Of a stretch of 42,242 bases of DNA, positions 14,722-34,434 are shown piece by piece. Location: sequence record PX871047.1. One strand, given 5' to 3'. A program made the position numbers and the translations under genes. This stretch comes from a phage. The first letter of the stretch is position 1; each line of letters starts with the position of its first letter. The notes under the pieces are model-generated. The model made no database searches. It had not been told where the DNA came from and worked only from the letters and a program-made list of their open reading frames with translations.

Positions 14722-15113
14722 GTTTCGCGCTTGATGTATCTAAGTTCGTCGAGAAGGCGAAGAAGAATCCCGAGAAGGTGATGCGTCAGGTGTCTATCAA
14801 ACTGTTTTCCGCTATTATAAAGGCGAGTCCGGTGGACACTGGGCGTTTTCGTATGAACTGGATGGCATCTGGCGGAACTCCGGCTTCTGGAACTACAGAT
14901 GCTACCGACAAGTCCGGCAACACTGCAACCGGGAATGTCACAAATTTCGTACTGAAAGCCGCAGACTGGAAGGAGTTCACGCTGACCAATAACCTGCCGT
15001 ATGCGCAACGGCTGGAGTACGGTTGGTCACAACAGGCCCCAGCCGGGATGGTCAGGACTAACGTGTCTCGCTTCCAGCAACTAATTAACGAAGAAGCCAA
15101 CAAGGTGAAATGA
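14718..15113 (+). CDS. tail/neck assembly protein (putative)
   Basis: Track ORF, translationally coupled. Confidence 0.4.
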   Translation: MSFALDVSKFVEKAKKNPEKVMRQVSIKLFSAIIKASPVDTGRFRMNWMASGGTPASGTTDATDKSGNTATGNVTNFVLKAADWKEFTLTNNLPYAQRLEYGWSQQAPAGMVRTNVSRFQQLINEEANKVK

Positions 15114-15526
15114 TGGGCTACTTTGAGGACTTAACAAAAGCGTTTGACGTGCCGCTGGTATCGTTCGGAACCGCCAACGGCATCAAGGTTGCGCTTGAAA
15201 ACATCGACGCGCCAACGTCAACCAATACCCCGTATCTGGCAAGTTACATGTTGCTCGCTGATACGGAGCAGGCGGATTTGTTCTTCACGGAACAACGCTC
15301 AGGTGTTTATCAGGTCGACATTAACTACGCATCGGTGAAAGGTAGCGCGCCAATCAATAAAATGGCAGACTTACTTAACACGGCATTCAAAGCAGGTAAG
15401 TCATTTTCACGTAACGACATCTGCGCCGAGGTTCAATCGGTTAGCCTGGGGCCACTGATTGTAGAAAACGGATGGGCCAAACGACCATTGTCAATTAACT
15501 TTATTGCATTCACCAAGAGGCTGTGA
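15110..15526 (+). CDS. tail completion/terminator protein (putative)
   Basis: Track ORF immediately before major tail gene. Confidence 0.4.
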   Translation: MMGYFEDLTKAFDVPLVSFGTANGIKVALENIDAPTSTNTPYLASYMLLADTEQADLFFTEQRSGVYQVDINYASVKGSAPINKMADLLNTAFKAGKSFSRNDICAEVQSVSLGPLIVENGWAKRPLSINFIAFTKRL

Positions 15527-16723: not shown

Positions 16724-16900
16724 TCACTCACTTTTGAATGGCATTTCGTAGAAGTTAGTTAACTGACCTCTGTCACTCCGTTCTGTCATCTCTTTTGTCG
16801 CCTCTTCCTTGCTACCTACGGCGTAAATATCAACCCACTCATCCCATTCTTCGTCATATACGCGGATAACGTATATTGCCCCCATTGTGCCTTCACGCAT
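16724..16900 (-). CDS. hypothetical small acidic protein
   Basis: Last gene of reverse-strand island; track ORF 16724..16930 begins at TTG; internal ATG 16900 chosen, start uncertain. Confidence 0.4.
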   Translation of the reverse strand: MREGTMGAIYVIRVYDEEWDEWVDIYAVGSKEEATKEMTERSDRGQLTNFYEMPFKSE

Positions 16901-17462
16901 TTGGGTAAATCCCCAGGATTCTATTGGCAACCGTGGCCGCGGTTAATGTAATCTCACCAGGAATGATGGCGACGTCATGGCATACTACCCCATCAATATC
17001 GTACAGGTAGCCACGGCTATCCCCGTCAAACGTGTAGCCGTCTCGGTGCAAGCGGACGATTCGCACGTCATGCCCAGCGGCGACGATAGGGGCAACTTCA
17101 CTGGCAAACCCACCGTCGGACACCACAAAAACTTCGTCGCCGTCAGGCAAGTTTTCAGCGAGATACTTACCGAAATAATCATTGCCAAGTACAGGCTTAA
17201 TGAATTGCTCCGAGATAGCAATCATGAACTGACGTCGCGACAACCCATTAAGGAAACATTCTGGCTTTTCTTTCCGTGCCCGGTCGTCGTAGCCGTCGAG
17301 AAATTCGTGGTAAGCATCCGGGCCTAACGCTGCCCGAGCAATATTGAACATTGGATTCTTGAAACTGGTAGTTCCTTTCGCAAAGCCCATTTCTACCATC
17401 GCCATAGCAAGCGTGTCTTTCCCGCAACCCGCAGGGCCATTAAGGATAATTACCTTAGCCAT
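16893..17462 (-). CDS. P-loop nucleotide/polynucleotide kinase-like protein
   Basis: Walker A GPAGCGKDT near N-terminus; start overlaps stop of upstream phosphatase gene. Confidence 0.6.
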   Translation of the reverse strand: MAKVIILNGPAGCGKDTLAMAMVEMGFAKGTTSFKNPMFNIARAALGPDAYHEFLDGYDDRARKEKPECFLNGLSRRQFMIAISEQFIKPVLGNDYFGKYLAENLPDGDEVFVVSDGGFASEVAPIVAAGHDVRIVRLHRDGYTFDGDSRGYLYDIDGVVCHDVAIIPGEITLTAATVANRILGIYPNA

Positions 17463-17947
17463 TATTTATTGCTCCCGTGTGATTTTAAGTGTGTAGAGTT
17501 CCCGTTACAGTCGTATTCAGTAACCGCGTGCGTAGTGACTCCTAAGCCGCGGAAATGCTTAATCACCGCGGGCGAGTCGTCGAATGCGCACAATATTCTC
17601 TCCAGCCCGATAGCACGCAACACCTCTTCTTTAATTACGATGTCTTTTCTGTTGTCGTGTTTGCTGCGCATGATTAGCTGATAAAATTCGACGCGGTGGC
17701 GCTGCAGCCACATTCTGGTTTCTTTTTCTGCATCATCACTGCGGCCCGTTAAAATAATAACGGCATAGCGACGATTAAGGGCGTTACACAGTTCGATGTT
17801 ATCTTTAATGGGCGCGTCATCTTTGCAGGCCATGTTAAAAGGCTTCCACGCCCATGTTTCGTTGTAGTTATCTTTCGGTAGCAGGTGTAAACGATGAGTA
17901 CCGTCCGCCAATGTCCCGTCTAAATCGAAAATCACAATATCTTTCAT
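17462..17947 (-). CDS. HAD-family phosphatase, T4 polynucleotide kinase-phosphatase phosphatase-domain-like
   Basis: N-terminal FDLDGTLA (DxDxT) motif; later TGR...DNRKDIVIKEEV block recalled as similar to T4 Pnkp phosphatase domain. Confidence 0.55.
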   Translation of the reverse strand: MKDIVIFDLDGTLADGTHRLHLLPKDNYNETWAWKPFNMACKDDAPIKDNIELCNALNRRYAVIILTGRSDDAEKETRMWLQRHRVEFYQLIMRSKHDNRKDIVIKEEVLRAIGLERILCAFDDSPAVIKHFRGLGVTTHAVTEYDCNGNSTHLKSHGSNK

Positions 17948-19074
17948 CCCAGCATCTCCGGTGAAATAGTTAAACGTGCAACCTCACCATATTCGGCGCT
18001 ATAAGTAATTACATTTGCACTGCGCCCTGACATCCAACCGCCGCGTGAGGCATAGGCGTCTTTAGCCGCTAAGGTTCGGTGTTGCTCAACAATCATGTTA
18101 CGGCTTTCTACAATCTTCTGATGGTGCAGGTGGCCTACGTGGGCGTAGCTGTAAACACTCTCTCCGAACGCTTTGCGGAACTTAGCAATCATTACCGGTT
18201 CGATAGCGTCGAATCGTGCTTTATGCCCGTGATGGAAGAACAGCGTCGTTTTGCCGTGTTGCACCATCTTGTAAACATCCGGCGACGTATCGACGAACAC
18301 ACGAGGCTCATTGTCGTACAGCGTGCTGAACATCTCAGCCAGCCAAATCATTCCGCTTTCGTCGTGGTTCCCTTGCACGATAAGCAAGCGAACATTTTTA
18401 TGCTTAACGAGTGCCATATCAACAACACGGCGGACCATACGAATCATGTAGCGGACCAGTTTCTGATAGCGCGTGTCCGCGTCAAGAACATGACCACTCG
18501 CTGGCGTAACCGCATCCAGGCTATCGAAGTGTGCAAGGTCACCTAGCAGATTAATAACACCCGTTCCTGCATCCGGCGCTTTCTGAAACGCAGCATCGAA
18601 CCAGCGAGAGAACAGGTCTTCCGCAATCTTCATATCCCAGTCGTCGCCGCTCTCGTCGGCCCAGGCCAGCATACCGAGATGGAAATCAGACACAGTGTAA
18701 AGGTTGAGTAGTTTATCGTCGCGTTTAGCGCGGGCGGCTTTAACAGGCGCAACTGGCGTAATCTCTGACTTCATGCCTTCGATTACGGCTTTCATCAACT
18801 CGACCTGACGTTCGGCGTCAGTGTCTGTCTTAACCCATTGCAACTTAGTGTTGCCGGACTCATCCACCAGGGACGACGTCCCTTTAATCTTGTAGCCGTC
18901 AGGAACAAGGTGACTAACGTCACGCCCGTGACCCACGCCTTTCTTGGCCAGCTTCGCTTTACGGATACGAATAACGCGGTCTGAGATGCCGTATTTACGG
19001 GCAATGTCGATATTCTTCATCCCGGCGTTCAATTCTTCCTGTAACTGTTCGTCGGTTATTTTCTTCCGGGCCAT
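17944..19074 (-). CDS. HTH-domain calcineurin-like metallophosphoesterase
   Basis: N-terminal HTH-like NIDIARKYGISDRVIRIRK; metallophosphoesterase motifs DFHLG, GDLAHFD, GNHD, HHGH, GHLHH. Confidence 0.6.
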   Translation of the reverse strand: MARKKITDEQLQEELNAGMKNIDIARKYGISDRVIRIRKAKLAKKGVGHGRDVSHLVPDGYKIKGTSSLVDESGNTKLQWVKTDTDAERQVELMKAVIEGMKSEITPVAPVKAARAKRDDKLLNLYTVSDFHLGMLAWADESGDDWDMKIAEDLFSRWFDAAFQKAPDAGTGVINLLGDLAHFDSLDAVTPASGHVLDADTRYQKLVRYMIRMVRRVVDMALVKHKNVRLLIVQGNHDESGMIWLAEMFSTLYDNEPRVFVDTSPDVYKMVQHGKTTLFFHHGHKARFDAIEPVMIAKFRKAFGESVYSYAHVGHLHHQKIVESRNMIVEQHRTLAAKDAYASRGGWMSGRSANVITYSAEYGEVARLTISPEMLG

Positions 19075-19112
19075 GCTTATGTCCTCATGTGTAGGATTTG
19101 TCCTATACTAGC

Positions 19113-19304
19113 TTACTTCTCGTTAACATTCGAGTTGCAAGCCCAGATTAAAATAAAGACCCACGGCAGCAGAGCCCAGCCAAGAAACAGGTTAGCCATG
19201 AATATTGCCAACTTCGCTTTATGGCCACGCATATGGGCTACTAAAAACGGGATAAAATAAACTAAAACGATAATGATTAAGAAGAACATAGTAATGCCAG
19301 TCAT
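19113..19304 (-). CDS. superinfection-immunity-like small membrane protein
   Basis: Two TM segments with RGH...NLFLGWALLPW pattern; AGGAGC RBS; first gene after promoter 19346-19374. Confidence 0.5.
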   Translation of the reverse strand: MTGITMFFLIIIVLVYFIPFLVAHMRGHKAKLAIFMANLFLGWALLPWVFILIWACNSNVNEK

Positions 19305-19374: not shown

Positions 19375-19481
19375 GTAATGTGTTAGAATTATTTTGCGCC
19401 TAGTGTCGCACACGAAAAGCGGGTGGTTCCCGTCTGGCGCATTCACATTAACCAGTAACCTCTTAACCAAAGGATTAAAGA

Positions 19482-19898
19482 ATGAAACTTTCTGATTTTT
19501 ATTACGAAGCTGAGGCAGAAAAAGGCGCCCGTATGCCGATCCCACTGAAAGACGGCACCGATTCAGGGGAGTGGCTGAACGTTGTTTCACCGGAGGCAGA
19601 CGTTGCCGTTAAAGCTATGAGGGCGTTTACACTTGCGTACCGCGCGGCATTAGGTAAATTGAAACCGCTTCGTGATAAATGCGAGGAACTGAAAGATTTC
19701 TCGGAATACAATATCAAGATGGAAGACGCCGCAACGGACCTTAACCGCCAGTTAGCGCTTGAACTGGTTAACGGTTGGAGTCTCGACGATGAATTTAATA
19801 AAGAGAACCTAAATACTCTTTTCTCACAATATACACGACTCGCTGAACACGTTGTTGTTTTCCACAATGAACAGCTACGCCAATTGCAGGAAAAGTAG
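19482..19898 (+). CDS. tail assembly chaperone (G-like, putative)
   Basis: Acidic 138-aa ORF directly upstream of tape measure; followed by -1 frame ORF. Confidence 0.45.
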   Translation: MKLSDFYYEAEAEKGARMPIPLKDGTDSGEWLNVVSPEADVAVKAMRAFTLAYRAALGKLKPLRDKCEELKDFSEYNIKMEDAATDLNRQLALELVNGWSLDDEFNKENLNTLFSQYTRLAEHVVVFHNEQLRQLQEK

Positions 19899-20263
19899 AC
19901 GCGTTGCTCCAGTTTGCCCGTTGGAACTTCATAACCCGCCACAAACGGCGGGAGTTTGACAGTATCGCAGATGGGCATAAAGCCGCGCTAATTGCTATGG
20001 GGGCTATGCAAGACGCGCCGGAAGCAACGCAGGACACCGGGCCGGAATGCCCCCCTGAACTATTAACCACCTTCGAGAAGTACCGGGAAATCAAATTTAC
20101 CCGCCGAGTGGATGACGACGGCATCAAGATGTACCCGCGCGAACAGTTAAGATGGTCGGATTTAGTGGCATACAGCACCGTTTCAGGCCAGAATATAGGC
20201 ATGTTTGAATCTGACATCATCATGAGCTTAGACGCTATTTTCGAGGGTAGAAACGATGGCTGA
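19889..20263 (+). CDS. tail assembly chaperone frameshift extension (GT-like, putative)
   Basis: ORF in -1 frame relative to 19482..19898, open from 19871; candidate slip site A_AAG at 19892-19895 next to TAG stop. Confidence 0.35.
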   Translation, partial: GKVDALLQFARWNFITRHKRREFDSIADGHKAALIAMGAMQDAPEATQDTGPECPPELLTTFEKYREIKFTRRVDDDGIKMYPREQLRWSDLVAYSTVSGQNIGMFESDIIMSLDAIFEGRNDG

Positions 20264-23981: not shown

Positions 23982-24497
23982 ATGAGCCAGGAATCAGTAG
24001 AAGCCGCCTATCGCCGCAAGCTGGCCTCAAATCCCGACGGCGAACTGGACTACATTACTCTTGAAATAACGCACCCGCTTCTCTCGAAGCGGTGGTTGCT
24101 TGTGCGCGGGACGTCTGACCTGACGGCAACGTTAGAGACCGGAGAAGTAGTTACGTTTGAGGCCACACCAATGGAGGCTAAAGGGGCCGCCAACAATAAC
24201 GACATGGACCAGCGGTCGTCGTTCGCATTACCTGATATTGGTAACCAGTTAGATGATGAGATGGACAGGATACCACCGGATAATACGGTGTTGCCTAAGT
24301 TTATATTCCGCCGTTTCGTCAGCACAGACTTAACCTATCCAGCGGATGGGCCTGTTGTTTACGAATTGCAGTCGATAAACCAGGAAAAGGGGATATTCAC
24401 AGCTGACGTCGGCGTCCCTATGTTGAACCAAAGAGCCACCGGTGAACTAATGACCCCTTCGGTAATCCCATTGTTGCGTGGTGTTTTGTCTACATGA
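23982..24497 (+). CDS. minor tail protein
   Basis: Tail-tip cluster position. Confidence 0.4.
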   Translation: MSQESVEAAYRRKLASNPDGELDYITLEITHPLLSKRWLLVRGTSDLTATLETGEVVTFEATPMEAKGAANNNDMDQRSSFALPDIGNQLDDEMDRIPPDNTVLPKFIFRRFVSTDLTYPADGPVVYELQSINQEKGIFTADVGVPMLNQRATGELMTPSVIPLLRGVLST

Positions 24498-24859
24498 ATA
24501 TTAATTCTTATACTGGGTTGCCGTACGATTTTCGCCGTCGTAATTGCTGGCACCACGTGCGTAACGTTCGTACCGACGCTGGTCTTTTTACGCCAGAGTT
24601 TAACGTCGCTTCACCAACACAGATTAACGACGCCTTCGAAGAAGGCCATAAAGACACTAAAGGCCTCGTACGCGTAGAAACTCCGCAAAACTTCGATGCC
24701 GTGCTGATGGCGACACGGCACAGAAACCGTGTAATCTGGCACGCTGGCGTATATTATGATGGTATGGTCAGTCATTGCGAGTTAGCAAGTCGCCAGGTAC
24801 GGTTAGACCGACTGGAAGACTTGCGCGAAACTTATGCGGAGATAGAATTTTGGCGCTGA
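24494..24859 (+). CDS. tail assembly protein, possible Cys/His peptidase-like
   Basis: NCWHH...HAGVYY...SHC residues; position in tail-tip cluster. Confidence 0.35.
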   Translation: MNINSYTGLPYDFRRRNCWHHVRNVRTDAGLFTPEFNVASPTQINDAFEEGHKDTKGLVRVETPQNFDAVLMATRHRNRVIWHAGVYYDGMVSHCELASRQVRLDRLEDLRETYAEIEFWR

Positions 24860-27402
24860 TATTACATTACACCCGTAACGAAGACGGTACTTTTGACCGC
24901 AAACGGTATAACGTACCTCCGATGGAATACGTCGTTGCTAACATCCCAGACGGGGTACCTGTGCGTATTTACCGCGGCGAGATTGGTGATGATACAGACG
25001 TAACGGAAAACTTCGAAGCGCTGAAAGAAGATGACGTTTTCCATATCATCGAGGGCGCTGGCGGCGGTGGTGGTTTTCTTGGTAAACTCCTGGACCCTTT
25101 GGGTGTGCTTAAATTTGTTACCAAGTTGATTTCTCCGTCGCAGAAAACGCCTAAAACGAGTTTAGCGAACCAGCAGGCGGAGTCTCCAAACAACAGCCTG
25201 ACGGACCGAAACAATAAACCGCGTCCGTATGAACGGTCGTATGATATTTGCGGCAGGGTCCAGACTATCCCTAATGACCTCATGACTACGTATAAGGTCT
25301 TCAATGACGCAGGTGTGGTAGTCGAATACGGCTACTATGACGCCGGTCGTGGGTATCTTGATATTAAAGCCGAAGACATCACCGACGGCGATACTAAAGT
25401 GCAGGAGATTACAGGAACTTCTGTAGCGGTATACGCCCCATTTACATCCCCTAACAATACAAATACGCCTCAGCTTCTGGTGGGGGACCCTATCAATCAG
25501 AATCTGTACATAACTATTGCCTCGAACGAGGTAGATGGGGCCGTTCTTAAAGCGCAGAACGATATCAGGGTTAATCCCAGTGATACCGGTGAGATTTCAT
25601 TGCAGGGGGCAACTGGTGTCGTCCGCGATAACACTGGCGACTCTGCTTTCTCTGAGATTTTATCGGTTGGGGACATAGCTGTTTTTAACCTTATTCTGGT
25701 AAAAGACGTGGCTAACGTCAGTGGTAGCTATACTGTTACATACGTAGATGACTTTGAGGTAAGAGTAGCCGCCGGAGGGGTGTTGTCAGAATGGCAAAAA
25801 TTGCCATCGGGGTTCACTCCTTTAACGCAAGGTACCGAAGCATGGATTTCACCGTCGAACACTTACGATAAGTCGTTAACGGACTGGACTACTTTAAACC
25901 GCCTGGAAGTTGAACGCGTAGTAGCCAACATCGCGGCCGCGAATGGTATGTATAAAGACAACGGCAGTAAATTGCGCACGTCGGTAACTGTCGAGCTTCA
26001 GTATCAACTCCTTGATGAAACTGGCGTGCCGTACGGGGATGTTTACTCAAAACAGGCCGTTATATCAGGTCGTTCTGCGGATTACACAGGTGTTACTATT
26101 TACGCCGACTTGCCCATGCGGTCGAAAGTTAGGGTACGGGCCCGCCGTGTTACTAACCTTGACCTTAGTTTCGAGGGGACCGTGGTAGACGAGGTTTCCT
26201 ACATCAACCTTTATGGGCAGGTACGCGACACTACACCGCATTACGGCAACCGTACTACCGTGCACTCCGCACGTAAGCAGACGCCGCGGGCCGCGGAGAT
26301 TAAGCAGCCGCAACTACGTATGGTTGCCACAGAGATGGTGTACAAATACCTCGGCAACGGCGTATTCGACACGGTTATGACACCGAATACTCAGGCGATT
26401 CAGTCCTTAATCCGTCTTGCCCGCGACCCGGTAGTAGGTAATCTCAACCTAACCACATCCAATATGGACAAGTTGTTAGCGACTCAGAACGAGATAGAAA
26501 ACTATTTCGGTAACGCAGAGGCTGGTCAATTCTGCTACACTTTTGACGATTATAAAATGACTATGCAGGACATAATCAGCACAATAGCCGACGCTATTTT
26601 CTGCACACCATATCGTAAAGGGCAAGACATATTACTGGATTTCGAGCGCCCTCGTATGGGGCCGGAGATGGTATTCACCCACCGCAGCAAAACTACCGCG
26701 GCGGAGAAGTGGACGCGCACGTTTAACGACGCACAGGTATACGATAGTCTCAAGTTTTCATACATCGACCCAGATACTAACGTCAAAGAGACTATTAGCA
26801 TCCCGGCCGAAGGAGGTGTTAATACCGAAACGTACGACTCTAAGGGTATCCGTAACTATCGACAGGCGTACTGGGCAGCTTATCGACGTTACCAGAAAAA
26901 CTTGTTGAAGAAAGTCACGGTGTCCTTTACGGCGACAGAAGAAGGAGTTTTTGTGCTGCCTGGTCGCGCAATAAGCGTCGTTAAAGGTTCGCGCGTAGCG
27001 CCTCAAGACGGCTATGTTGTTGCCGTTAATGGTCTTACTCTGACTTTATCACAGCCGGTTACTTTTACCCCCGGAGACGACCACTCATTGATTCTTAAGA
27101 AGCGTGACGGTGGTGTTCAAAGTGTTGCCGTTGTGCCCGGAAGCCACGACCGTGAAGTGGTTATGCTCTCTGCGCCTCAGGAGGCGATATACACAGGGAA
27201 TAGCGCACTAAAAACTGAGTTTTCATTCGGCAACGAAGCAAGGCATAATGCTCAGATGATTCTTGTTTCTACAGTTGACCCTGGAGACGACAGAACGGTT
27301 AAGATTACTGGGATTAACTACGAAGCAGATTTCTATAAATACGACGGCGTCGCACCTTTCGGTAGCGGTTTCTCCGGCGGATTCAGCAACGGTTTTAGTT
27401 AA
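24850..27402 (+). CDS. tail tip / central tail fibre protein (putative)
   Basis: Large ORF in tail-tip cluster; TTG at 24850 after GGAGAT; alternative ATG 24922; track ORF begins 24775. Confidence 0.5.
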   Translation: MALILHYTRNEDGTFDRKRYNVPPMEYVVANIPDGVPVRIYRGEIGDDTDVTENFEALKEDDVFHIIEGAGGGGGFLGKLLDPLGVLKFVTKLISPSQKTPKTSLANQQAESPNNSLTDRNNKPRPYERSYDICGRVQTIPNDLMTTYKVFNDAGVVVEYGYYDAGRGYLDIKAEDITDGDTKVQEITGTSVAVYAPFTSPNNTNTPQLLVGDPINQNLYITIASNEVDGAVLKAQNDIRVNPSDTGEISLQGATGVVRDNTGDSAFSEILSVGDIAVFNLILVKDVANVSGSYTVTYVDDFEVRVAAGGVLSEWQKLPSGFTPLTQGTEAWISPSNTYDKSLTDWTTLNRLEVERVVANIAAANGMYKDNGSKLRTSVTVELQYQLLDETGVPYGDVYSKQAVISGRSADYTGVTIYADLPMRSKVRVRARRVTNLDLSFEGTVVDEVSYINLYGQVRDTTPHYGNRTTVHSARKQTPRAAEIKQPQLRMVATEMVYKYLGNGVFDTVMTPNTQAIQSLIRLARDPVVGNLNLTTSNMDKLLATQNEIENYFGNAEAGQFCYTFDDYKMTMQDIISTIADAIFCTPYRKGQDILLDFERPRMGPEMVFTHRSKTTAAEKWTRTFNDAQVYDSLKFSYIDPDTNVKETISIPAEGGVNTETYDSKGIRNYRQAYWAAYRRYQKNLLKKVTVSFTATEEGVFVLPGRAISVVKGSRVAPQDGYVVAVNGLTLTLSQPVTFTPGDDHSLILKKRDGGVQSVAVVPGSHDREVVMLSAPQEAIYTGNSALKTEFSFGNEARHNAQMILVSTVDPGDDRTVKITGINYEADFYKYDGVAPFGSGFSGGFSNGFS

Positions 27403-32043: not shown

Positions 32044-32171
32044 TCCAGCACCCACAGATAAATTGCGATGAACATACCTAATACGGCTACAATCATGCCG
32101 TATTGGCCCTCGTGACAGTAGACACCGGCGGCAAATCCCGCCAGTACTGTGATAATCAGTTTACTTAGCAT
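32040..32171 (-). CDS. small membrane protein (43 aa)
   Basis: Start overlaps 3' end of polymerase gene; hydrophobic; ATGA-coupled downstream. Confidence 0.35.
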   Translation of the reverse strand: MLSKLIITVLAGFAAGVYCHEGQYGMIVAVLGMFIAIYLWVLE

Positions 32172-34434
32172 AACGGTACACCTCTCCCCCAGCCCATGTT
32201 AACGGGAACCCTTCGGCCCACTCAGGTAATGAGCATAGCAGGTCACCCATCTCTTTAACCGTGTACTCTGGCGTGTCTGGCGTTTCGGCAACACATTCGT
32301 CATGTACGTGGAGTACAATTGGGTAGCCCGCCGCCTCGACCGTCAGGAGTCCGTTAACCAGTAAATCACGGCACAACGCCTGGATGATGTTTTCACACAA
32401 TTTTCCGCCGTGTGTGTACAAAGTTGTCCACTGGCGGGTGGTCTGATTTTCGCCCTGGTATTTAATGCGAACGTTAGTTGTTACACGCCCGTCCTCGTCG
32501 GTCTCTTTAGTGACGCTTAAGCCTATGCCAGGGTAGGACATGATGCGCCCCGACGGCAGCTCCACGCACAACCACCAACCTGGCACAAAGTTACCTTGTC
32601 TGTCTTTCTCCTTAGTACGCCAGATGCGAATAGCTCTGTCGCCGTTGGGGCGGACTCTGGCCCCCGCCCAAAACTCTCGTCCCGGATTTCTAATTGCAGC
32701 AATCACCGAATCCTTAAGGTCGTTCCAGAATTTCACTGTTTCCGGATGGGCCTCACGCCACATGCGCTTGATAGCATCGCAAGTGCGCCAGACTTCTTTA
32801 GGCAGCACATAAGAGGCCCGTTCATCCTTTTTACCGGGTTTTGGGGGCCGCTTAGCCTCCTGAATCCGCGCCCATTCATAGCCTCGGGCAGTGGCGGCCC
32901 ATATATGGTCAGGGAATGTTCCCCGCATTGTCTCCGTCATTTTAAAGAGGTCCAGCCCGTAAGTTTTAGCCATAGTCATGAAGGCCCCCACGCCCCCCTC
33001 GTAGCCGAGGCCGAGCTCGCAACATTTCCCGACCTGTCGCAGGTCTTTACGGGTGGCTTTCAGTTCTATGGGGTCCATACCAAACATCTTGCCCGCAGTG
33101 GCGCAATAAATATCAATCCCCGCGCGGAACGTCTCAAGCGCGGATGTCTCCCCCGCGGTCCAGGCCAACCCGCGCCCTTCTACGTTTGAGTAGTCGGCAA
33201 CGAGCAACTTATTACCCTTTTCAGGGATGATGCAACTGCGAACAGTCGAGGCTGTCAGCTTGGATACGTCGAAACGACGGTGCGCCCGACCCTTTAGCAG
33301 CAGATTGATGCCGAACGATAGGGGGTTGAGACGACGGTTCCAGTCTTCGTCGGACTCCCACGGCTGGCGCACAAGTTTCTTTTCCTCGTTAGTCGGGTCG
33401 TCGTGGTAGTACCCGCGCGACAGGTTCTGCGGTTGGAACCCTTTACCCGCAAATCGTAAAGTGCGCTTTGCCCCACCGTACTGGATGCAACCGCGGCGGC
33501 GGCCGTCTTTGGACCGTCCTAGCAGGAGCGGTTTGTATTTTGTCGACGCCGTGGAGGCCGCGCCGAGGCGCATCTCAATGATTGTGCGCGCATCGTCAGG
33601 TAAGTCGTCGTCCTCTAGCAAACCTTCGAGCGTTGCTTTCTGTGCATTATAGATATTGTAGGCCGGTGCCAGCTCCCGAAGGATTGGCAGGAAGTCTTTA
33701 CCCGTTAGCTTCCCGCCAAATTTAGCCCTGGCCTCGTTTTTTAGCTCTTGCTTGTGGCGTTCAACTGCTGCTACCGCCGCCTCAGCAAGAGCCGCATCAA
33801 CAAAGAAGCCTCGGTCGTTGATTAACTGGTCAAGTTCAAGTACACGGTCCTCGAAATCGGAGTTACCCCAACGTGGCAGCTTATGGAAGACTTCACGCAT
33901 CGCTGTGATGTCGCTCACGGCATACTTGATGAACAGGGCCCACTCGTCAGGGTGAGTTTCTGCGGTGTAGCGGCGGATTTTGTAGTTCTTCGGCGTCGGT
34001 TTAGAGAAACGCTTAATCAGCGCCTTGCCGCGTTTATCTTTTGCATTGTCGGCGGATACGCCCAGCACTTCGCACAATGCGTCAAGTGACCCCGGCAGCG
34101 CGTGACGAAACGCCCAAATCATCGTATCAATGGTGTTGCTTACCGGAATATCAAAGTCCCAGCAGTGCTTCATGACGAGCCTGTCGAACATTGAGCCGTT
34201 GTGCCACACCATCTTAATACGACTGTTTGGCTTAACCAGGCGGCGCAAGGCGCGATGCAAATCCCCCGGCATGTCGCTGCCGTCAGTGCAGTCCCATACC
34301 TGAACAGGCTCGTCATCAAAAGCATAGGTGCAGATGAGCACTTCGGTAGTCGGGTGTTCGGCGTAAGCATAGGAGCCGACTTTCTTCAAATCGGCTTCGG
34401 AGAAGGTTTCAAAGTCTAAGAACAGATAACTCAT
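32161..34434 (-). CDS. DNA polymerase, family A, with 3'-5' exonuclease domain
   Basis: Exo motif LFLDFETFS; pol motifs DYSNVEGR, K...LGLGYEGG, VHDECV. Confidence 0.85.
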   Translation of the reverse strand: MSYLFLDFETFSEADLKKVGSYAYAEHPTTEVLICTYAFDDEPVQVWDCTDGSDMPGDLHRALRRLVKPNSRIKMVWHNGSMFDRLVMKHCWDFDIPVSNTIDTMIWAFRHALPGSLDALCEVLGVSADNAKDKRGKALIKRFSKPTPKNYKIRRYTAETHPDEWALFIKYAVSDITAMREVFHKLPRWGNSDFEDRVLELDQLINDRGFFVDAALAEAAVAAVERHKQELKNEARAKFGGKLTGKDFLPILRELAPAYNIYNAQKATLEGLLEDDDLPDDARTIIEMRLGAASTASTKYKPLLLGRSKDGRRRGCIQYGGAKRTLRFAGKGFQPQNLSRGYYHDDPTNEEKKLVRQPWESDEDWNRRLNPLSFGINLLLKGRAHRRFDVSKLTASTVRSCIIPEKGNKLLVADYSNVEGRGLAWTAGETSALETFRAGIDIYCATAGKMFGMDPIELKATRKDLRQVGKCCELGLGYEGGVGAFMTMAKTYGLDLFKMTETMRGTFPDHIWAATARGYEWARIQEAKRPPKPGKKDERASYVLPKEVWRTCDAIKRMWREAHPETVKFWNDLKDSVIAAIRNPGREFWAGARVRPNGDRAIRIWRTKEKDRQGNFVPGWWLCVELPSGRIMSYPGIGLSVTKETDEDGRVTTNVRIKYQGENQTTRQWTTLYTHGGKLCENIIQALCRDLLVNGLLTVEAAGYPIVLHVHDECVAETPDTPEYTVKEMGDLLCSLPEWAEGFPLTWAGGEVYRYAK

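Follow-up and report, generated by a model that had tools for sequence, protein, structure and literature searches.

A conserved, putative non-canonical slip site between two tail chaperone reading frames of a Kagunavirus, and the -1 frameshift it suggests

In the phage studied here, two overlapping tail assembly chaperone reading frames, ORF1 and ORF2, are very probably joined by a -1 ribosomal frameshift at the tetramer A_AAG (19892-19895; positions are those of the window, i.e., the whole 42,242-nt stretch analysed). The predicted fusion, join(19482..19895,19895..20263), would be 260 aa long, with a junction that reads ...LRQLQEK and then VDALLQFARWNF... In 68 distinct relatives the nucleotides of the putative slip site are kept more strictly than the encoded protein alone would require. 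Frameshifting of this kind is well known, and close relatives have been predicted to use it before; the present analysis adds the comparative, sequence-based proof of selection on the predicted slip site, together with the definition of its non-canonical anatomy.

Layout of the chaperone genes and their neighbourhood

The source phage is a Kagunavirus (Guernseyvirinae). Its chaperone region is 97% identical to those of the Escherichia phages Schulenburg, Snoke, Shashou (96.6%) and Sciku, all Kagunavirus. Phage records that match it number 348 by DNA and about 490 by protein comparison, mainly Salmonella Jerseyvirus and Escherichia Kagunavirus.

Direct reading of the sequence confirms the coordinates and terminal codons originally given for ORF1 (19482..19898, ending GAA AAG TAG): the last codons are CAG (19887), GAA (19890), AAG (19893) and TAG (19896), and the protein ends ...LRQLQEK. 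The downstream frame likewise lies, as had been described, at -1 and is open from 19871. It follows a TGA at 19868-19870 and runs up to a TGA at 20261-20263, so that the two open frames overlap by 28 nt (19871-19898).

Both products belong to chaperone families. In Pfam, ORF1 matches Phage_TAC_4 (E = 2e-8; 34.9 bits against a cutoff of 21.1) and ORF2 matches Phage_TAC_18 (E = 1e-18; 67.5 bits against a cutoff of 27). A single PHROG profile of 259 positions, phrog_15027 ('tail assembly chaperone'), covers both frames, with ORF1 aligning to positions 1-138 and the -1 ORF to positions 136-259; fused products must therefore already be present in phage protein collections. The tape measure ATG at 20256 overlaps the end of ORF2 as ATGGCTGA, ORF2 ending 8 nt inside the tape measure gene, and this overlap is also kept in relatives. 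A chaperone pair upstream of the tape measure gene, as the original prediction had it, is thus borne out by both Pfam families, by the profile that spans them and by the tape measure gene that follows. A sequence search of the PDB returned no meaningful relative of ORF1, and an AlphaFold2 model built from a 4-sequence alignment (mean pLDDT 58, pTM 0.34) was too poor for a fold search.

The chaperone pair does not lie directly 3′ of the tail tube gene. Four minus-strand genes (∼2.8 kb, 16893-19304) intervene where the tail tube, chaperone and tape measure genes usually follow one another; a position 3′ of the tail tube gene is a habit of synteny without functional requirement. Because the minus-strand genes interrupt this order, the chaperone-tape measure operon has its own leader, and it probably has its own promoter. 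The plus-strand leader that separates the ORF1 start from the divergent superinfection immunity gene (19393-19457) matches the int-alpA RNA of Rfam (RF02996) over the full model, with 32.4 bits against a gathering score of 35.8 (E = 1.4e-4). Matches to RF02996 stand at the equivalent position in five divergent relatives (L015:305-369, L014:319-383, L016:307-374, L100:1412-1476 and L018:315-359), one of which reaches the gathering score. This RF02996-like element may provide the tail operon with a 5′ leader that is both structured and conserved. Further downstream, the program-made ORF for a J-like tail tip protein (24775-27402, plus strand) opens with a TTG and shares 85 nt with the gene before it (24494-24859). 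In Shelanagig the corresponding overlap is only about 10 nt, and the true start of the tail tip gene is probably further downstream.

Table 1. Features at and around the chaperone junction, in window coordinates
Feature	Position	Strand	Remarks
Tail terminator gene	15110-15526
Tail protein gene, 390 aa	15523-16695
Four genes: dNMP kinase, polynucleotide kinase, SbcD-like exonuclease, T4 Imm-like superinfection immunity	16893-19304	-
ORF1, gpG-like tail assembly chaperone, zero-frame product of 138 aa	19482..19898	+	Pfam Phage_TAC_4; phrog_15027 1-138
Putative slip site G_GAA_AAG	19889..19895	+	AAG 68/68, GAA 55/55, G before GAA 55/55
Invariant core A_AAG	19892-19895	+	Kept in 68/68 distinct relatives
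ORF1 stop TAG; its TA completes the first -1 codon GTA (Val)	19896..19898	+	Stop directly after AAG in 67/68
ORF2, -1 frame segment, 122 codons plus stop, gpT-like domain	19895..20263	+	Pfam Phage_TAC_18; phrog_15027 136-259
3′ block GCGTTG (family GCGYUG), 6-11 nt after the slip site	19901..19906	+	Ala GCG 68/68, Leu only YTG
Candidate clade-specific long stem, low confidence	19901..19988	+	MFE -37 kcal/mol, z = -3.09
TTG, conserved Leu codon of the -1 frame; ORF2 start in many GenBank records	19904..19906	+
Tape measure protein gene, 778 aa	20256..22592	+	phrog_1538, E = 2e-197

Nucleotide conservation at the junction

We compared the junction among relatives from GenBank (L001-L020 and L103-L108) and 79 IMG/VR loci. 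The IMG/VR loci were picked by peptide patterns inside ORF2, so their choice carries no bias towards the junction. After deduplication the set comprised 52 distinct junctions and 68 distinct ORF1 plus ORF2 pairs, with ORF1 identities as low as about 42%. All 68 have ORF2 in the -1 frame, and every ORF1 ends in NNA_AAG. A stop follows the AAG directly in 67 (TAG in 51, TAA in 16, TGA in none), the exception reading AAG TTA TAG, and the base after the ORF1 stop is A or C in 66 of 68. Conservation in 68 distinct genomes excludes a sequencing error or a pseudogene as the origin of the split frame. A non-functional ORF2 is likewise excluded by amino acid conservation combined with free synonymous change.

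The penultimate ORF1 codon varies by lineage. It is GAA in 55 relatives, GCA in nine, AAA in two, TCA in one (Serratia phage Eta) and GGA in one (Raoultella phage RP180); where it is GCA or TCA, only the tRNA-Lys can re-pair. When this codon encodes glutamate it is always GAA and never GAG (55/55), and the base before it is always G (55/55), contributed by CAG, TCG, GCG, ATG, AAG, TTG and also CTG codons; elsewhere in ORF1 the third position is G in only 26%. Canonical heptamers occur at the homologous position in three of 68 relatives: A_AAA_AAG in two environmental loci (L064 and L066) and G_GGA_AAG in RP180. The source phage's own G_GAA_AAG is no canonical X_XXY_YYZ heptamer, and a scan of the 28-nt overlap for Z_ZZN tetramers found none besides A_AAG. 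The -1 frame is open for just 15 nt before the junction in several relatives, which confines the shift to the last five codons.

Codon use argues that selection here acts on the nucleotides. The 68 sequences have 56 alignment columns in which the amino acid is at least 95% conserved and its codons are degenerate. All but two of these columns show more than one codon; the two exceptions lie at the junction and are the terminal Lys of ORF1 and the third codon of the -1 frame, Ala GCG. The terminal Lys is AAG throughout, against a 64% share of AAA among Lys codons elsewhere. For the junction Val, 67 of 68 relatives have GTA, and other conserved Val columns use all four codons. Whichever base stood in the middle of the stop, the -1 frame would still read Val, so selection must act on the stop codon or on GUA itself. 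The 20 sequences that share the TTG homologous to 19904 show no variation at positions -9 to +11 relative to the slip G, and their codons just upstream vary synonymously. The original prediction had called the site non-canonical and A_AAG followed by a stop a plausible slippery sequence. The comparison upholds both points, with A_AAG as the sole invariant part, the stop adjoining it in nearly all relatives and the synonymous sites frozen.

The same fusion could in principle arise by slippage of RNA polymerase rather than of the ribosome, since the site contains a short A run (GAAAAG) and transcriptional slippage would have the same -1 outcome. The run is just four A long here and three A long in the GCA_AAG and TCA_AAG lineages, and productive transcriptional slippage requires longer homopolymers. 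The strict G after the run and the adjoining stop would also go unexplained, and we regard this route as hardly credible.

The frequency of A_AAG in the source phage's own genes was also recorded. There are 22 in-frame occurrences among 10,537 codons (0.21%), where codon frequencies predict 46; this roughly halved frequency across 33 long ORFs is consistent with avoidance of shift-prone sites. Only the ORF1 copy among the 22 adjoins a stop, and TAG is the rarest stop codon in these genes (3/33). Three further in-frame copies of the longer G_GAA_AAG lie at codon 525 of the tape measure gene, codon 135 of 23982-24497 and codon 351 of 32161-34434, which indicates that the motif by itself is not very shifty.

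Initiation of ORF2, timing of the proposed slip and possible stimulators

If ORF2 were translated separately, its first start-type codon would be the TTG at 19904. Initiation there could be supported by the AGGA at 19888-19891, 12 nt upstream, whose homologue is marked as a ribosome-binding site (RBS) in the Schulenburg record, or could follow termination at the TAG 5 nt upstream by reinitiation; in either case no fusion would be made. Most GenBank records annotate two ORFs in keeping with this. However, the TTG is replaced by CTG in 48 of 68 relatives and kept in 20. The first ATG, GTG or TTG after the junction lies, by lineage, at 9, 30, 36, 84, 93, 96, 102, 141, 150, 171, 282 or 324 nt, and a start at the far end of this range would leave some relatives with only about 13 codons. 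Moreover, protein conservation begins three codons upstream of the TTG. Conservation in the ORF2 alignment sets in with the very first residue (V-x-A-L-[YLF]-x-[FY]-A-x-W), and the stretch V-x-A-L-Y-x-F-A-x-W begins exactly at the junction whatever the distance to a start codon; likewise, each of the 491 records whose tblastn match spans 80% or more of the query is matched from the junction Val onwards. Separate initiation would also leave unexplained the invariant choice of AAG over AAA, the A that precedes it and the G before GAA. We therefore consider a wholly separate ORF2 very unlikely, though initiation at the TTG is conceivable as a minor route in the source phage's clade. The earlier statement that ORF2 has no RBS-supported start accordingly holds in part: the first start-type codon is indeed merely a TTG, but an AGGA does stand upstream of it, at a spacing that is long.

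Under the favoured ribosomal frameshift, the tRNA-Lys on AAG (19893-19895) would slip back one nucleotide and re-pair with AAA (19892-19894). The ribosome would then read GUA (Val, 19895-19897) in place of UAG, continue through GAC-GCG-UUG and go on to 20263. A small fraction of ribosomes would slip in this way, giving a G-T-type fusion of 260 aa beside an abundant short form of 138 aa. As in lambda, the N-terminal part common to both forms would be expected to bind the tape measure protein, with the T-like extension serving to recruit the tail tube protein. That slippage occurs, how often and at which step of elongation, we infer from the comparison. A slightly favoured timing would place a slow stop codon in the A site, the tRNA-Lys in the P site and the tRNA-Glu, re-pairing from GAA to GGA, in the E site. 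Such a post-translocation slip would fit the adjoining stop, the use of TAG (otherwise the rarest stop in the source phage's genes) and TAA but never TGA, and the A or C after the stop. The alternative timing is classical P/A-site tandem slippage during translocation. The adjacent stop codon probably assists the slip.

The shift could instead be real but dependent on a lineage-specific RNA structure, a stem at 19901-19988 acting as a roadblock for P/A-site tandem slippage, with the stop serving only to end ORF1. The 95 nt downstream of the slip site do fold at -37 kcal/mol (z = -3.09), the stem begins 5 nt after the site, a canonical spacing, and GCGYUG has a predicted pairing probability of about 0.75; the conserved G before GAA further suggests re-pairing of two tRNAs. 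Relatives give this candidate little company. RNAalifold on 54 sequences of the downstream region returned -0.76 kcal/mol, three pairs and no covariation, i.e., no consensus structure; the source phage's stem pairs are paired in 61% of cells in relatives against 58% in shuffles. Across 21 lineages the 45-nt downstream folds have a mean z of +0.2, and the 95-nt folds a mean z of -1.2, no better than the -1.1 of a control region inside ORF2. The predicted partners of GCGYUG differ between lineages, the GCA and TCA lineages are unable to re-pair the second tRNA, and the middle base of the stop is under selection, as the junction Val codon attests. We consider a structure-dependent shift somewhat unlikely. 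The original prediction had envisaged a downstream stimulatory structure as a point to check, and the outcome is mixed: a candidate stem is present in the source phage, and family-wide support for it was found neither by RNAalifold nor in pair counts or z-scores.

Other stimulators were sought as well. No Shine-Dalgarno (SD)-like stimulator was found upstream, nothing being conserved among relatives upstream of position -7. Rfam has no frameshift element matching the slip site; its sole match is the int-alpA-like leader described above. The GCGYUG block is synonymously invariant without a conserved pairing partner, and protein coding does not account for it. The block could stimulate the shift itself or form the 5′ boundary of a structure. 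It is tempting to combine these elements into a linear cassette, NNA_AAG-UAR-NN-GCGYUG, that would work without RNA structure: slow termination by RF1 would compete with -1 slippage of the P-site tRNA-Lys, and GCGYUG would be a sequence stimulator of a new type that may act, e.g., via contacts in the mRNA entry channel. We offer this cassette tentatively and think it unlikely to be correct as a whole. If it were, termination kinetics would set the G:GT ratio and hence tail assembly, and the natural 5′ codons GAA, GCA, TCA, AAA and GGA would be a ready-made test set.

Known recoding systems, existing annotation and significance

Reporter studies in E. coli frame what may be expected of such a site. 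A_AAG is by far the most shift-prone tetramer there, yet tetramers without a stimulator stay at background (about 0.15%) and shift appreciably only with a downstream stimulator; the best heptamers are G_GGA_AAG, A_AAA_AAG and C_CCA_AAG (PMC4066793). NNA_AAG is used naturally by IS1222, and its efficiency varies with the 5′ codon; lambda G/GT needs merely a low shift rate, at a ratio of about 30:1 (PMC5009743).

The closest parallel is the lambda G/GT chaperone frameshift (Levin et al. 1993; Xu, Hendrix and Duda 2004, 2013, 2014, as cited in PMC5009743). As in lambda, an overlapping ORF pair lies directly upstream of the tape measure gene, with the second ORF in the -1 frame and without a start of its own; tRNA-Lys would slip on ...A_AAG without need of a strong stimulatory structure, and a low-level long fusion is expected beside an abundant short form. 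The relative RP180 even has lambda's exact G_GGA_AAG. The systems differ in the heptamer (G_GAA_AAG here, G_GGA_AAG in lambda) and in that the slip codon here is the last sense codon, abuts the stop and is followed by the GCGYUG block. About 2.8 kb of opposite-strand genes separate the pair from the tail tube gene here, the Pfam families are TAC_4 and TAC_18, and the frameshift is predicted from sequence.

The site also resembles the NNA_AAG -1 sites of IS1222 (G_CGA_AAG) and Bacillus subtilis cdd (A_CGA_AAG), as described in PMC5009743 and in Licznar et al. 2003 as cited there. Only A_AAG appears strictly required, the 5′ codon varies (GAA, GCA or TCA here) with limited or no re-pairing, and the shift would rely on a single tRNA-Lys that reads both AAA and AAG. 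Unlike those sites, the junction here has no conserved downstream hairpin or pseudoknot 5-9 nt away and has an adjacent stop instead. Likewise, dnaX of E. coli (A_AAA_AAG) shares the A-site codon and the tRNA-Lys, and its heptamer is the one carried by L064 and L066. However, dnaX has an upstream SD-like element, a downstream hairpin and about 50% shifting, and no such stimulators were found here; the shifted frame of dnaX also terminates quickly, whereas the shifted frame here adds 122 residues.

A further resemblance is to 'shifty stop' systems. Stop-dependent -1 shifting was reportedly described by Weiss et al. in 1987, and an E/P-site post-translocation model is said to have been put forward by Horsfield et al. 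in 1995. The stop next to the shift site is conserved here and appears selected, with TAG and TAA both tolerated. In contrast to such systems, the stop here could be kept only to set the C-terminus of the short form, and dependence on a release factor is putative. The frameshift site of pea enation mosaic virus also has a nearby stop (PMC5009743).

Annotation of the junction is uneven. Among 15 annotated records inspected, 13 give ORF2 an arbitrary start or omit it and two give a fusion. ORF2 starts in records and gene callers range from 8 to 170 nt after the ORF1 stop, and no ORF2 is called in PSDA-2 or in the Logan contig L100. The two fusions, in Salmonella phage Shelanagig (MK931446) and Escherichia phage fFiEco03 (MT711524), are joined as 'tail assembly chaperone frameshift product' and have the same length as the 260-aa fusion predicted here; the Shelanagig junction, CAATTGCAGGAAAAGTAGACGCGTTG, is identical to that of the source phage over 26 nt. 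A search of a large protein database with the 260-aa fusion returned five matches and no fused entries, a result that is uninformative on the extent of fusion annotation. Published genome announcements conflict on the slippery sequence: that of Shelanagig reports one for a G/GT-like product (PMC6763656), and that of Shashou reports 'no canonical slippery sequence' (PMC6776780), though both appeared in the same year and acknowledge the same NSF award. Our literature search found no paper reporting experimental evidence for a chaperone frameshift in Guernseyvirinae.

About 490 GenBank records could share one consistent gene model if the frames were joined by rule at the terminal A_AAG that precedes the stop. 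The parts of the site that are conserved are the tetramer, the adjoining stop and the short 3′ block, and the 5′ codons differ by lineage. The general picture of tail chaperone frameshifting is unchanged, and these phages, as a natural case of a presumably productive -1 site, offer a convenient system for learning what stimulates low-level tetramer slippage in enterobacteria.
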